From positions 1-54,996 of IMG/VR virus record IMGVR_UViG_3300045988_171436: a DNA stretch of 54,996 bases; one strand, written 5' to 3'. A model generated the notes under the pieces. The model was not told the DNA's origin. It ran no database searches and worked only from the letters and a program-made list of their open reading frames with translations. The DNA comes from a virus. Its lineage: Duplodnaviria; Heunggongvirae; Uroviricota; Caudoviricetes. The position numbers and the translations under genes are program-made. Of this stretch, positions 3,669-18,040 are shown piece after piece; within the stretch, counting starts at the first letter, position 1; the number at the start of each line of letters is the position of its first letter.

Positions 3669-4031
3669 TTAACGACCTGCTGCGCGGAGTTTTCCGTCAG
3701 GTTCACCGGCAAGAGTCAGTAACTGTCCCTGGTCTTCCTGCAGAATAGTCAGGCGACCACCGCGATTGACATACATCGGCGTTTCGGTGGTGTCTTCTTC
3801 GGAAATTTTCCCGCGGTTAGTCGGGCGAACATATGAGAGTTTGTGTTTGATTTTCACTCGGTTCTCATCAAACGGTTCGATTTCCAGGTTGAGCGAGACC
3901 TTACCTTTGGTTTTCGTGTTCATCACACCGGAAGCGACTTCACTGAGAACTGCGCCGATTTTGGTTTCAAATACGCCGCCGTCCAGCTCCCCGATAAATG
4001 CCTGCACATCAGTACTGCGTTCGCTAGCCAT
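3669..4031 (-). CDS. Hypothetical phage protein (121 aa from internal ATG)
   Basis: Protein-like sequence begins at MASERSTDVQAF...; the N-terminal extension of ORF 3669..4349 runs through a GC-rich structured region and looks non-coding. Confidence 0.4.
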   Translation of the reverse strand: MASERSTDVQAFIGELDGGVFETKIGAVLSEVASGVMNTKTKGKVSLNLEIEPFDENRVKIKHKLSYVRPTNRGKISEEDTTETPMYVNRGGRLTILQEDQGQLLTLAGEPDGKLRAAGR

Positions 4032-12001: not shown

Positions 12002-12379
12002 TTGTGGAGAAAGTTGATGCGTGATATTCAGATGGTTCTGGATCGTTGGGGTGCATGGGCGGCGAGTGATAGTTCTGGGGTAGACTATTCGCCTATAGCT
12101 GCTGGGTTTAAAGGGCTTCTTCCCTTTACAAGCAAAACACGTCAGGCTTGTTCAGATAGTGATGCATTAATTATTGAAGGTTGTCTTGCTCGTCTAAAGC
12201 AAAAAAGACCTGAAGAACACTCGCTTCTTGTTGCCCATTACCTATACGGTATCTCTAAAAGAAAGCTCGCTAAAGCTCGCAAAAAGGATGAGAAAATAAT
12301 ACGCATTGAGATACAGATGGCTGAGGGATTTATAGAAGGTTGTCTAGCTATTCTAAATGTTAGCTTAGATATGGATTAA
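12002..12379 (+). CDS. Late antiterminator Q-like protein
   Basis: 125 aa; MRDIQMVLDRWGAWAA... N-terminus typical of small Q-like antiterminators of E. coli cryptic prophages (recalled); position before the lysis genes. Confidence 0.55.
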   Translation: MWRKLMRDIQMVLDRWGAWAASDSSGVDYSPIAAGFKGLLPFTSKTRQACSDSDALIIEGCLARLKQKRPEEHSLLVAHYLYGISKRKLAKARKKDEKIIRIEIQMAEGFIEGCLAILNVSLDMD

Positions 12380-12395
12380 TATCTTGGTTTGGATA

Positions 12396-12417
12396 AGCAG
12401 GTGTGCTTGCACCTGCT
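12396..12417. terminator. Stem-loop between convergent Q gene and moron operon
   Basis: AGCAGGTG-TGCTTG-CACCTGCT, perfect 8-bp stem. Confidence 0.5.
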
Positions 12418-12422
12418 TAATA

Positions 12423-12875
12423 TTATATGTGGGGTAATATCCAGTTTATTTTCCTCCAGGTACTTGCAAATGAAACTATTGATACGATCAGGGTCGAGAA
12501 ACCATATAAGGTTAGGGCGAAATCAAGTCTTACAGAGGTAATGGTGATTTTTTCATTTATAAACATAGCTATCAGCGGGAAAATACATGCTAATATTAAG
12601 GTAACTCCCGTAGATAACAGGTTATGAATAATTTTAGGTAAAATCTTGTTTTGTTTTAAAGCAAAAATAATTCCATCAGTACTTGAACTTGCAGAACTGA
12701 AGATGGAAATAGCGGCCAATACAAAACCAAACAAAATGCCTGCCACCGTAGATAACACTCCGGCTGTACTTAAGATATCAGAGTGAGCCATAGGCGCTAG
12801 GTATTTCCCAAGCACCCAAGCTAACAGCCCACTGATAACTATGTTAATTAAAACTTTAATAAGCATAATCATCAT
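12423..12875 (-). CDS. Small four-TM membrane protein (150 aa), second gene of antisense two-gene moron
   Basis: Four hydrophobic segments (about res 2-24, 38-60, 88-110, 120-140); AT-rich; 12 nt downstream of partner gene. Confidence 0.6.
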   Translation of the reverse strand: MMIMLIKVLINIVISGLLAWVLGKYLAPMAHSDILSTAGVLSTVAGILFGFVLAAISIFSSASSSTDGIIFALKQNKILPKIIHNLLSTGVTLILACIFPLIAMFINEKITITSVRLDFALTLYGFSTLIVSIVSFASTWRKINWILPHI

Positions 12876-12889
12876 CCTTAAAAATAAGA

Positions 12890-13822
12890 TCAGATTTCAT
12901 ATTGCTTTAAATACTGACCATGTTCAATTTTAGCACTGATCAAGGCAGTACGCACATCTGTTTCTTTTGCGTAGCCATCTTTTGTGTTAATGTTTTTTTC
13001 ACTGATCAGAACTTGATTGAGAAGACTCCTTGAATGAGTATTTTTAGGTTCAGTGACATTAGCTTTACGTAATAAGTGAGGAACTTTTTCTATTAATTCC
13101 TTTATTCCACTTTTTACTTCATCACTGAGATAACCACGGATTAATTTACGTTGCGATGCTCTACCTCTAAGTGATAGTTTTAAATGCGAACCGCCCATCC
13201 CAGCCATCATTTCAATCATACTTTTGGAAAATGAATTCGAAAGGTCATAATCCGTTGCGCTAAAATTACGTGGAGCGGCGAGTGTAATTTCACAGCTACG
13301 TAAAGTGCTTCCTGTTTCAAGTAGTTCTTTTACACTTTCTTTTTTCCAAATGGCCTCAAACGCTACAGGTTTGTTTTCTTCAGAAAAATTGAATAAAAGA
13401 AATGCTAAATCGGAAACTTTAGGTCCTAAATGATTTTGAGATAAAACAAGAATGTCTTTCTTATAGTAGTAAATAAAATAAGTGCGTTCGACTATATATT
13501 TTTTATCATCTAACGGAATATTGTGCTCATCCCAATTTTCATCACCAATATAAGGTAAGTGGAAACCATCACGAGAGCATGATAGATAACCAAAATAGAA
13601 CTCCGCCTGTGCGTCTTTTTCTAAGAATACAATCTTTAATTTTTTCTTATCAAACTCAGCGGTATAAGAATTTTGCGAAGGTGTAACAATGGTTGTATAC
13701 ATGTTGTCAAATGCAAGTTGTGCATTTGATGTAGTTGACTTCGTTCCTGAGGAGCTTTGGAAGAAACCGATACGCATTTTTTTTTGTTTAGTTAGTGGCG
13801 CGGAAGTGGCTGTAGTAGTCAT
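12890..13822 (-). CDS. Hypothetical soluble protein (310 aa), first gene of antisense two-gene moron
   Basis: AT-rich ORF, ATG at 13822, no motif recognised by eye. Confidence 0.6.
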   Translation of the reverse strand: MTTTATSAPLTKQKKMRIGFFQSSSGTKSTTSNAQLAFDNMYTTIVTPSQNSYTAEFDKKKLKIVFLEKDAQAEFYFGYLSCSRDGFHLPYIGDENWDEHNIPLDDKKYIVERTYFIYYYKKDILVLSQNHLGPKVSDLAFLLFNFSEENKPVAFEAIWKKESVKELLETGSTLRSCEITLAAPRNFSATDYDLSNSFSKSMIEMMAGMGGSHLKLSLRGRASQRKLIRGYLSDEVKSGIKELIEKVPHLLRKANVTEPKNTHSRSLLNQVLISEKNINTKDGYAKETDVRTALISAKIEHGQYLKQYEI

Positions 13823-14098
13823 TAAAATTACCCTTTATTATCCTTTTGAATCAATGGGTTGTGATTTGTTAATGATCCTAGGTTCGTTGCATATGCATAA
13901 TCTATCAAAAAAAACTTACGCGGTCCGCATATTCTCGTTTACTGTGTTAAGAGTGGTTACTTCGCCACACAGCTTAAACCCGCCGTCGAGCGGTTTTTTT
14001 GTACCTGTAAACCTGGTGCAGTACAGTAAACACGCTGGTGGTCGTGAATACTGACTTTTTATCTTGCTGGCTTTTTAGACAAGAGTTATTGGTATGTC

Positions 14099-14476: not shown

Positions 14477-15529
14477 ATGAAAAATACTGTAAAAATAAAC
14501 AGTGTTGATTTAATCAACGCTGATTGCCTGCATTTTATTCAGTCCCTGCCTGATGATTCCATTGACCTGATTGTTACCGATCCGCCGTACTTCAAGGTGA
14601 AACCCAACGGCTGGGACAATCAGTGGAAAGGGGACGAAGATTACCTTAAGTGGCTGGACCACTGTCTGGCCCAGTTCTGGCGGGTGTTAAAACCTGCCGG
14701 AAGCCTTTACCTGTTCTGTGGGCATCGCCTGGCATCTGATATTGAGATCATGATGCGTGAACGTTTCAACGTGCTTAACCATATCATCTGGGCGAAGCCG
14801 TCCGGACGTTGGAATGGGTGTAATAAAGAAAGTCTGCGCGCATATTTTCCTGCCACAGAGCGCGTTCTGTTTGCTGAACATTACCAGGGGCCATATCGCG
14901 GCAAAAGTGACGGCTATGCGGCAAAAGAAAGGGAACTCAAACAGCACATAATGGCACCGCTGATATCGTATTTCAGGGATGCTCGTGCCGAACTGGGTAT
15001 AACGGCAAAACAAATTGCCGAAGCCACAGGTAAGAAAAATATGGTTTCCCACTGGTTTGGTGCCAGTCAGTGGCAGTTGCCGAATGAGGCTGACTATCGG
15101 AAGTTACAGGCTCTGTTTTCCCGTATAGCGGCAGAGAAGTTTCAGGAACAACAACTGGAACAACCACACCACCAGCTGGTGGCATCTTATGATTCACTGA
15201 ATCGCAAATATTCTGAATTGCTGGATGAGTTTAAATCTCTCCGGCGCTATTTCTCCGTATCAGTCTCCGTGCCTTATACCGATGTCTGGACGCATAAGCC
15301 CGTTCAGTTCTACCCGGGTAAACATCCGTGCGAGAAACCGGCGGATATGCTCCGGCAAATAATCAATGCCAGTAGTCGACCTGGTGATCTGGTTGCTGAT
15401 TTCTTTATGGGATCCGGTTCCACAATAAAAGCAGCAATGGCGCTGGGGCGTCGGGCGTTAGGTGTTGAACTTGAGTCAGAGCGGTTTAATCAGACGGTGA
15501 AAGAGGTAAGTGAACTGGTGGGGAAATAA
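14477..15529 (+). CDS. DNA methyltransferase (N6-adenine/N4-cytosine, beta class)
   Basis: IVTDPPYF (motif IV) upstream of FFMGSGST (motif I FxGxG). Confidence 0.8.
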   Translation: MKNTVKINSVDLINADCLHFIQSLPDDSIDLIVTDPPYFKVKPNGWDNQWKGDEDYLKWLDHCLAQFWRVLKPAGSLYLFCGHRLASDIEIMMRERFNVLNHIIWAKPSGRWNGCNKESLRAYFPATERVLFAEHYQGPYRGKSDGYAAKERELKQHIMAPLISYFRDARAELGITAKQIAEATGKKNMVSHWFGASQWQLPNEADYRKLQALFSRIAAEKFQEQQLEQPHHQLVASYDSLNRKYSELLDEFKSLRRYFSVSVSVPYTDVWTHKPVQFYPGKHPCEKPADMLRQIINASSRPGDLVADFFMGSGSTIKAAMALGRRALGVELESERFNQTVKEVSELVGK

Positions 15530-16788: not shown

Positions 16789-16921
16789 TACACCTGTACC
16801 GTTTATACCCAACCCACTGACGTATGGTGCAAGTCTTGATTTGAATGTAAGTTTGTTATCCGCGTTGGCTCAATGTAATAGGGATAAGTCAGATATCAGA
16901 ATCATTGATAATCAAAATTGA
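16673..16921 (+). CDS. Rz1: o-spanin (Rz1-like lipoprotein), overlapped with and extending past Rz
   Basis: MMIVLYALCLLPLLTGC lipobox followed by Pro-rich segment, +1 frame inside the Rz 3' end. Confidence 0.5.
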   Translation: MMIVLYALCLLPLLTGCGSTRTVYVSIPKTPLPVSLTSDTPVPFIPNPLTYGASLDLNVSLLSALAQCNRDKSDIRIIDNQN

Positions 16922-17125
16922 TGTATATTTTTATCGTCATGTAGATAACGAACAAGGTATTCCTCTGATACGTATTCGTTGAATACAGGTCATGGGTAGG
17001 CATTGCAATATCGCTTCGAAATTATCTGTGATAATGCTCTTAATTTTGAATGTATGTATTTGGGAAAAGAGATAAAGTAATAGTCTAATTAATGGAGATA
17101 TCCACAAAACACAAAAGGGACTATT

Positions 17126-17632
17126 ATGAGACCAGATCAATTTTTCTATCCAGATACTTTTACCTTTAATTCATCCACCTATTATGGTCAACGTGACTCA
17201 TCTAAAGGCCGATTGTATATTCCTATTGAAAGTGACTTATGCCCATTTAATATCGGCGATATCATTGTACAAAAAATGGTCGACAGGGAAAGACTATTTG
17301 AAGTGCTTGATTACGAGGTGCAAATTAGTCTCGAGGTTGGTTGCCCTGGCTACTCACATTTGGCGGTATTGATAGTGAAGGCATTGGATGTAAAAGAGAA
17401 GCCGAAGCAGATTACGACCCATTTGACGTTTAACGGTGCTATTAATGCTGGTGGTGATTTTCAAGCCGGTAATGATAATTCGATCACAAAGAATATAACC
17501 ATTCAACAACTACATGATGCTATAGAGCATTGCAATGATCCAGAGGTTAAAAGCCTTTGGCAAAAGCTATTGGAAAATCCGACGTTTGCTTCAATTGCTT
17601 CAATATTGGCAAAAAGTGCTTTAGGACAGTAA
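17126..17632 (+). CDS. Hypothetical protein (168 aa), AT-rich moron between lysis and packaging modules
   Basis: ORF preceded by about 330 bp of AT-rich non-coding DNA and followed by a terminator. Confidence 0.5.
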   Translation: MRPDQFFYPDTFTFNSSTYYGQRDSSKGRLYIPIESDLCPFNIGDIIVQKMVDRERLFEVLDYEVQISLEVGCPGYSHLAVLIVKALDVKEKPKQITTHLTFNGAINAGGDFQAGNDNSITKNITIQQLHDAIEHCNDPEVKSLWQKLLENPTFASIASILAKSALGQ

Positions 17633-17640
17633 TTCATCAA

Positions 17641-17664
17641 GCCCCATTCAATATGGGGTTTTTA
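17641..17664 (+). terminator. Rho-independent terminator
   Basis: CCCCA-TTCAATA-TGGGG followed by TTTTTA. Confidence 0.6.
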
Positions 17665-17689
17665 TGCTTATTACAAAGAGTTTTCTTCA

Positions 17690-18040
17690 ATGCCACCACG
17701 AATCCCAAAATCCTGCCGCGTTCGCGGCTGCCGCCATACCACTACTGACCCGTCAGGCTACTGCGAAAGCCACAAAAACGAAGGCTGGAAGCAATACAAG
17801 CCAGGACAATCCCGTCATCAGCGCGGCTACGGTTCGAAATGGGATGCTATCCGTGAACGTGTACTGAAACGTGACAAAGGTTTATGTCAGTTATGTCTGC
17901 GTGCCGGTGTGGTGCGTGAAGCGAAAACCGTTGACCACATCATCCCTAAAGCGCATGGCGGCACTGATGCCGACTGTAATCTGCAGAGTCTGTGCTGGCC
18001 GTGTCATAAGGCGAAGACGGCCCGTGAACGGTTGAAGTGA
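17690..18040 (+). CDS. HNH endonuclease (packaging-associated)
   Basis: CQLCLRAG...VDHIIPKAHGGTDADCNLQSLCWPCHKAKT HNH motif; immediately upstream of terminase. Confidence 0.8.
   Translation: MPPRIPKSCRVRGCRHTTTDPSGYCESHKNEGWKQYKPGQSRHQRGYGSKWDAIRERVLKRDKGLCQLCLRAGVVREAKTVDHIIPKAHGGTDADCNLQSLCWPCHKAKTARERLK

Follow-up and report, generated by a model that had tools for sequence, protein, structure and literature searches.

A candidate RexAB-type exclusion module in the slot downstream of Q in an Escherichia coli lambdoid prophage

The window analyzed here is the whole 54,996-nucleotide (nt) stretch of virus record IMGVR_UViG_3300045988_171436, an Escherichia coli lambdoid prophage that carries, directly after its antitermination gene Q, an AT-rich insert with two minus-strand genes. 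The first gene encodes a soluble protein of 310 amino acids (aa) and the second a small protein with four transmembrane (TM) helices. Profile comparisons indicated that the two proteins are very probably remote homologues of RexA and RexB of phage lambda, since links were obtained for both of them and a RexAB~RexA label has been published for a relative of the large one, three findings that we take together. By analogy with known systems, we consider it reasonably probable that the unit is a prophage-borne, two-component exclusion (abortive-infection) module of the RexAB type. Judged from its sequence, the pair appears to be a divergent, so far undetected member of this known kind.

A preliminary description of the same DNA had drawn attention to the RexA/RexB-like gene order, protein sizes and four TM helices of the pair. 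This likeness was upheld, and to it we add a remote, collinear profile similarity for both proteins. The description could confirm homology neither to RexAB nor to components of Kiwa, CBASS or Pycsar; deep profiles now place RexAB above the null expectation, whereas the other three received no support. It had also called the module divergent or undescribed, and only the first term holds, because the PADLOC database already contains a related candidate, PDC-M67.

Profile similarity of both proteins to RexA and RexB

The large protein belongs to the Pfam family DUF6731 (PF20505), which it matches with a score of 44 bits (cut-off, 27), its residues 12-273 aligning with positions 2-261 of 295. An identical protein is named 'DUF6731 family protein' in RefSeq, and the match to phrog_7651 has an E value of 1.8e-143. 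To compare the family with RexA, an 87-sequence DUF6731 alignment (effective number of sequences, Neff, 6) was aligned against a 28-sequence RexA alignment with hhalign, giving an E value of 5.5e-5 and a probability of 66% over 220 collinear columns (query 14-260, RexA 2-237). The score of 40.1 lies about 10 standard deviations above shuffled controls (60 block shuffles, 17.3 +/- 2.25, maximum 23.0; reversed profiles, 16-17). Reciprocal matches between hidden Markov models and sequences fell in the same register, with E values down to 1e-4, and reversed sequences reached 0.8 at best. Shallow profiles (Neff 2-3) against lambda RexA repeatedly returned one motif (ERTYFIYY..DILVLS.NHLGPK.SDLAFLL / LGFPSFLF..D.IGFA.T.YGP.T.DL..FL), and against lambda RexA and RexB alone their probability stayed below 1%, so the signal comes from the deeper profiles only. 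The same connection can be read from Table S5 of the DefensePredictor study (PMC13092281), in which UniRef50_W7QHW3, labelled RexAB~RexA, carries PF20505 DUF6731 at 99.8%. Searches with the large protein found no nuclease or other enzymatic motif or domain, in agreement with the preliminary description, which had recognized no enzymatic motif in it.

The small protein matches phrog_8552 (E 7e-60) and has four hydrophobic segments (approximately 1-19, 37-55, 83-101 and 116-134), a pattern that lambda RexB reproduces. Four long helices also appear in its single-sequence AlphaFold2 (AF2) model, which is of low confidence (predicted local distance difference test, pLDDT, 62; predicted template modeling score, pTM, 0.34). 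The first lead to RexB was a match of the PADLOC RexB model to the TM partner from a Vibrio locus, collinear over 96 residues (E 1.6e-4). Profile comparison then ran in two steps: the TM family of the window aligned with the partners of distant DUF6731 genes at 99.8% hhalign probability (E 2.6e-29), and those partners aligned with the RexB family at 86% (E 4.9e-6; score 39.8 against a null of 15.5 +/- 2.9). Pfam RexB was the top family for these TM proteins, matching three of 18 members (best E 8.7e-7), and one distant DUF6731 partner carries a precomputed Pfam RexB match. After the second TM helix, the KMKEYGHY motif of the distant partners pairs with KIREYGYM of RexB.

Conservation and distribution of the gene pair

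The 83 loci of close relatives all have, directly after the large gene and on the same strand, a TM gene of about 130-153 aa; in copies that are intact, -20 to +28 nt separate the two. Across 42 distinct loci, the pairwise identities of the two proteins are correlated (r = 0.935), and the median ratio of nonsynonymous to synonymous substitution rates (dN/dS) is approximately 0.035 for the large gene and 0.049 for the TM gene. Both genes are under purifying selection, and the low dN/dS, the correlated identities and the invariant adjacency and orientation show that they are real, linked genes rather than chance open reading frames (ORFs).

An exhaustive HMMER search returned 96 cluster representatives at E <= 0.001. 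Among nine distant DUF6731 loci (20-35% identity), eight have a hydrophobic gene of 130-153 aa directly 3', often overlapping, and at the ninth the contig ends; several of them adjoin integrases or CI-like repressors. Of 5426 complete E. coli genomes, 18 contain the identical unit, and with diverged alleles, counted by DNA similarity alone, the pair is present in at least 109 (at least 2%). A pair of 62% identity was seen in phage cdtI, and a scan of genome contigs yielded only two loci. Other carriers are integrase-linked islands and non-phage islands, all of them lacking a Q gene. We also observed a 39%-identical pair directly after the integrase of a 14.6-kb PM2-like (Vinavirales) prophage of Vibrio cyclitrophicus (L002, PQ189356, 1389-2896), and from this occurrence it follows that the module moves between tailed and non-tailed phage lineages. 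In several IMG/VR prophage copies (L010, L029-L030 and L040-L046), the large gene is truncated or frameshifted (132-295 aa) next to an intact TM gene, which suggests that the putative sensor gene occasionally decays.

The lineages in which the DUF6731 pair was seen are Enterobacterales, Vibrio, Aeromonas, Thiococcus and many known from metagenomes, and its carriers comprise lambdoid prophages, PM2-like prophages and integrative islands. We tentatively raise the possibility, which at present we hold to be doubtful, that DUF6731 with its obligate four-TM partner constitutes a large, taxonomically broad and unrecognized branch of the Rex superfamily. If this were true and the branch active, Rex-type modules of sensor plus channel would be a common prophage immunity strategy and not a curiosity of lambda.

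The insert and the slot downstream of Q

Coordinates of the unit and its borders are given in Table 1. The two minus-strand ORFs lie where the preliminary description had placed them, and its view of an AT-rich, antisense, self-contained two-gene moron beside Q agrees with both the GC contrast and the homology breakpoints. The GC fraction is 0.31-0.37 over positions 12150-13950 and 0.50-0.59 in the flanks; the insert itself, at 0.35, is placed between the Q stop codon (12379) and a backbone proximal to the late promoter that begins at about 13915. Homology to phages with other cargo or an empty site ends at about 12378 on the left and restarts at 13915-13945 on the right. Plus-strand genes to the left encode a KilA-N protein, a DUF968/HNH protein and the Phage_antitermQ protein (Q, 12002-12379), and a 75-aa ORF, an N6/N4 DNA methylase, a holin and a lysozyme follow to the right.

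Table 1. Features of the cargo insert and its borders (window coordinates)
Feature	Position	Strand	Basis and remarks
Whole AT-rich cargo insert	12380..13915	-	Between Q stop codon and conserved backbone; GC and homology breakpoints
rexA-like gene, 310-aa soluble protein, Pfam DUF6731	12890..13822	-	ORF, PF20505, phrog_7651, hhalign
rexB-like gene, 147-aa four-TM protein	12423..12866	-	ORF, TM segments, phrog_8552; 150 aa from first ATG at 12875
Non-coding region 5' of the unit, with Shine-Dalgarno and weak promoter-like site	13823..13915	-	Consensus scan
Strong stem-loop separating Q from the rexB-like gene that converges on it	12394..12419	.	Fold energy against shuffles
Boundary palindrome GCGGTCCGC, then T-run on minus strand	13917..13931	-	Phage backbone, not cargo

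Some details had to be revised. The gap between the two ORFs, previously given as 12 nt, measures 14 nt, and it becomes 23 nt if the small gene starts at its third ATG (12866). This start is the likely one, since an AAGGA Shine-Dalgarno sequence lies 8 nt upstream of it, the RefSeq annotation gives 147 aa and nearly all homologues are 145-149 aa long; the four TM helices attributed to the small protein stand, and its stated length of 150 aa is probably three residues too long.

The unit had been described as bracketed by stem-loops, which is correct for the left side only. The left stem-loop has a stem of 10-11 bp and a folding energy of -15.5 kcal/mol on the minus (cargo) strand (z -5.1), and none of 200 shuffles folded equally well. 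It is probably the 3' end or an insulator of the unit; as it lacks a U-tract, it is only a putative terminator. The right-hand hairpin (13982-13994, followed by T7) is weak (-6.2 kcal/mol, z -0.6) and occurs at the empty site as well; it is part of the conserved backbone and thus no border of the module. The slot is marked on its right by the GCGGTCCGC palindrome with flanking A/T runs, which was kept there in all phages examined (among them L115, at 3909-3918) and lies about 12 nt past the Q stop codon at the empty site. On the minus strand it forms a terminator-like hairpin with a T-run, whose fold is weak by itself (z -0.9); it might serve as an insulator, as a recombination site or as a piece of the late-promoter region. 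As this element would probably stop leftward transcription from the backbone, we infer that the unit should need a promoter of its own. A promoter-like site lies 5' of the unit (-35 at 13865-13860, -10 at 13842-13837); it has 9 of 12 consensus matches and is overall no better than shuffles. Rfam and tRNA scans of the region were empty.

The slot was compared between the window (12379-13930) and loci L113, L114, L115 and L128. Across E. coli prophages, the position after the Q stop codon is occupied by this pair, by other alleles of it, by an antisense gene for an NYN-domain protein, by an antisense gene for an SDH Clp-fold serine protease or, in a Stx2 phage, by nothing. Because the same slot takes unrelated cargo or none, it is a cargo hotspot directly after Q, distinct from the position of the Shiga toxin genes (stx). 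The insert had been likened to the cargo at the Q-S junction where stx is carried, and this placement needs correction: in the Stx2 phage with the empty slot, stx sits downstream of the methylase and tRNAs, whereas the insert, which runs antisense to the late operon, precedes that operon and is bordered by the Q stop codon and the backbone.

The DefensePredictor study sampled the same hotspot, as judged from two of its units: the reverse primer of 'TRNA', cgtgacataccaataactcttgtc (PMC13092281, Tables S6 and S11), matches the backbone at about 14074-14097, just right of the slot, with one mismatch, and 'NYND' resembles the NYN cargo of the slot. Neither 'TRNA' nor 'NYND', nor a third unit, 'TMRA', to which we return below, is found where the table gives its validated systems (PMC13092281).

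Several features of the surrounding DNA were recorded alongside. The backbone segment 13945-14100 is kept in many lambdoid and Stx2c phages, and its hairpin is labelled 'terminator' in phage Ayreon; a consensus search for the late promoter in this segment did not locate one. The N6/N4 DNA methyltransferase gene (14477-15529, 350 aa), between the late-promoter region and the holin gene, is missing from some otherwise similarly arranged prophages such as L128, in which the holin comes directly after the pair. Past the lysis genes, a second AT-rich stretch (about 16800-17800, GC 0.34) carries, to judge from the RefSeq prophage, a minus-strand bor lipoprotein gene and a DUF1398 gene, and is thus another antisense moron.

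Predicted function and comparison with known systems

The mechanism that we propose is modeled on lambda RexAB and on RexABpp of Pseudomonas putida. Lambda RexA is a cytosolic dimer with an RdgC-like fold that binds DNA non-specifically, and RexB is a membrane protein with four TM helices; upon activation, the membrane potential is lost and growth is arrested (PMC11077077; PMC12894663). In P. putida, PP_5643/5644 form a pair of a RexA-like and a four-TM protein that is silent in BLAST; both genes are needed for defence, and overproduction of the RexA-like protein causes RexB-dependent membrane damage (PMC12894663). By analogy, the pair in the window would be expressed from its own promoter in the lysogen, and its RexA-like protein would serve as the sensor, a cytosolic and probably dimeric protein that binds DNA non-specifically and for which an infecting phage is the trigger. 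The triggered sensor would then switch on the RexB-like membrane protein, which would depolarize or permeabilize the inner membrane, so that growth stops and the superinfecting phage fails.

A number of results weigh against this reading. The curated RexA models (Pfam PF15969 and PADLOC RexA) matched neither the window protein nor any of its 38 + 87 relatives at E <= 1-10, the curated RexB models (Pfam PF15968 and PADLOC RexB) did not match the window TM protein itself, and searches with the window proteins in PADLOC v2, Pfam and NCBIfam hit none of the curated models for RexA, RexB or other defence proteins; the NCBIfam search gave only a fragment match to Lart1, which is spurious. The direct profile links are of moderate strength (hhalign probabilities of 66% and 55%), and hydrophobic bias can inflate the profile scores of TM proteins. 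Structural comparison added nothing: sequence and profile searches of the PDB returned no relevant solved structure, the single-sequence AF2 model of the large protein (pLDDT 34) lends no support to any fold, and Foldseek of the TM model against BFVD gave no match below E = 1. Among the checks that the preliminary description had proposed, the deep profiles connected the pair to RexA and RexB, and neither Foldseek of the TM model nor PADLOC v2 with the window proteins did. No conserved promoter was found 5' of the unit across alleles, the region itself being unconserved. For lambda RexA, a part in the lysis-lysogeny switch that is not defence is known as well (PMC11077077). Finally, TMRA, a randomly chosen transcription unit of the ECOR collection, gave no protection in the DefensePredictor phage panel; it encodes a 340-aa protein, matched by HHblits at 95.8% to a RexA/DUF6731 protein, plus a second small protein (PMC13092281). 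Cluster look-ups and two annotated regions, inspected to place TMRA in the window family, gave other accessions only. Rex systems have a narrow range and depend on stoichiometry (PMC12894663), and for this reason we regard a negative result from a pBAD clone against a limited panel as weak evidence.

The activity of lambda RexA on the bistable switch, exerted without RexB (PMC11077077), also raises the possibility that the RexA-like protein mainly serves the prophage's own regulation, in the lysis-lysogeny or late-gene switch, with exclusion secondary or absent. In one variant, transcription of the unit would run towards Q and could lower the expression of Q in the lysogen. At 73 of the 83 loci, the pair and a Q gene of a single family (PF06530) converge, across alleles of 45-100% identity, and in the window only the hairpin that lacks a U-tract lies between them. 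We attribute the Q linkage, however, to exchange of cassettes between conserved flanks at a recombination hotspot, since the pair is also found in elements without Q (beside integrases, in the Vibrio PM2-like prophage and in non-phage islands) and since the slot accepts unrelated cargo or none. Moreover, a purely regulatory large protein would not need a TM partner, and the partner is strictly co-conserved. We therefore hold a mainly regulatory role to be unlikely.

The polarity of the pair could also be the reverse of that in lambda, as in a toxin-antitoxin system or in mycobacteriophage Butters: the soluble protein would be a toxic effector restrained by the membrane protein, serving addiction, or defence by release. 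For Butters, the cytosolic gp30 is described as the effector and the membrane protein gp31 as its restraint (as summarized in PMC12894663), and the tight co-inheritance and co-divergence seen here would suit two interacting proteins whichever of them is the effector. In the homologues with better support (lambda, P. putida, Sbash and CarolAnn), nevertheless, this part falls to the membrane protein, and the searches revealed no nuclease or other enzymatic motif or domain in the large protein, which makes reversed roles quite improbable.

Relatives other than Rex fared worse. Like the pair in the window, Kiwa combines a four-TM protein with a soluble protein of about 300 aa in a membrane-associated defence, and sub-threshold matches of the TM family were obtained to KwaA (1 of 31 members, E 0.0016) and, for a few members, to ZorA/MotA_ExbB (E 0.016-0.13). 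A Kiwa-like system, a Zorya-type MotA-like channel or a CBASS/Pycsar TM effector is nonetheless very improbable: none of the 125 large-protein sequences (38 + 87) matched KwaB (DUF4868), a cyclase or a Zorya partner, Kiwa has the opposite gene order with the TM gene kwaA first, the MotA_ExbB match reached 12.5 bits against a cut-off of 22.9 (family best E 0.016), and among TM families the support is best for RexB. That the pair assists the neighboring cassette in lysis, as a holin, antiholin or membrane modulator, is hardly credible, for although holin and endolysin genes are nearby and one or two TM-family members weakly match holin families (E 0.006), the insert lies upstream of the late operon on the opposite strand, has a foreign-looking composition, occurs in elements without such a cassette and is absent from most phages with the same lysis genes. 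The Kiwa, Zorya, CBASS/Pycsar and holin readings were accordingly rejected for want of partner or domain support.

An exclusion module of the RexAB type thus remains the reading that we favor, and it bears on a long-standing subject. RexAB is the oldest known abortive-infection system, yet its trigger and mechanism are unresolved, and the Rex-like systems described to date number only five (PMC12894663). Within the literature searched, no paper text mentions DUF6731 or PDC-M67, and the link to RexA is implicit in a supplementary table only (PMC13092281). Connecting DUF6731 and its partner to RexA and RexB offers a testable role for genes that at least 2% of complete E. coli genomes carry and that also occur in unrelated mobile elements. 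It shows, moreover, that the curated defence models of PADLOC v2, Pfam and NCBIfam have a gap, as all of them miss the pair, and it marks the slot after Q as a cargo hotspot separate from the stx position. What RexA-like sensors recognize is a question that dates from Benzer's rII work. If the modules are active, the specificity of the sensor could be mapped with the diverged alleles that E. coli naturally carries at a single locus.

Among known systems, the PADLOC candidate PDC-M67 shares the two-component (A, B) organization, although its models do not detect the window proteins. PDC-M67A weakly matches nine of 38 relatives (E 0.0016) and seven of 87 DUF6731-superfamily members (best E 2.5e-7), and PDC-M67B matches two of 31 TM partners (E 0.0048); PDC-M67, which is not known to be more than a computational candidate, is probably another branch of the same superfamily. 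TMRA resembles the pair as a two-gene unit with a RexAB~RexA/DUF6731-like protein and a small protein and with a high predicted defence score (log-odds 9.2; PMC13092281, Table S6), and differs from what we propose in being recorded as not defensive in that panel. The mycobacteriophage pairs Sbash gp30/31, CarolAnn gp44/43 and Butters gp30/31, compared here by description only, likewise consist of a cytosolic and a membrane protein. They are prophage-carried, exclude heterotypic phages and have RexA-like proteins that bind DNA non-specifically (PMC11077077; PMC12894663); unlike the window pair, their soluble proteins are 337-372 aa long, their hosts are Actinobacteria and, in Butters, the roles are reversed.

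Lambda RexA/RexB (PF15969/PF15968; RexA, PDB 8TWQ) share with the window pair the order of soluble before membrane protein, the short gap (15 nt in lambda, 14-23 nt here), similar sizes (279/144 aa against 310/147 aa), four TM helices, carriage by a prophage and the collinear profile similarity described above. No pairwise similarity is detectable, however, and the curated Rex models miss the window proteins. Moreover, rex of lambda lies in the immunity region downstream of cI, whereas the window pair is located after Q, where transcription from pRM is not possible. In the RefSeq prophage that matches, several kb lie between the unit and the repressor region upstream of it (ymfK/ymfT-like genes), which is not an immunity-region placement.

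In RexABpp of P. putida prophage P1 (PP_5643/PP_5644), the soluble protein (37.5 kDa with a His tag) was linked to RexA by HHpred and not by BLAST (PMC12894663). A search for PP_5643 with primer-derived 25-mers gave no match in viral and metagenome contigs, and no fetched protein has its termini. RexABpp differs from the window pair in adjoining a Cro/CI-type repressor gene. As prophage cargo encoding a soluble protein followed by a four-TM protein, it provides the best precedent, on the side of function, for a Rex pair of divergent sequence.

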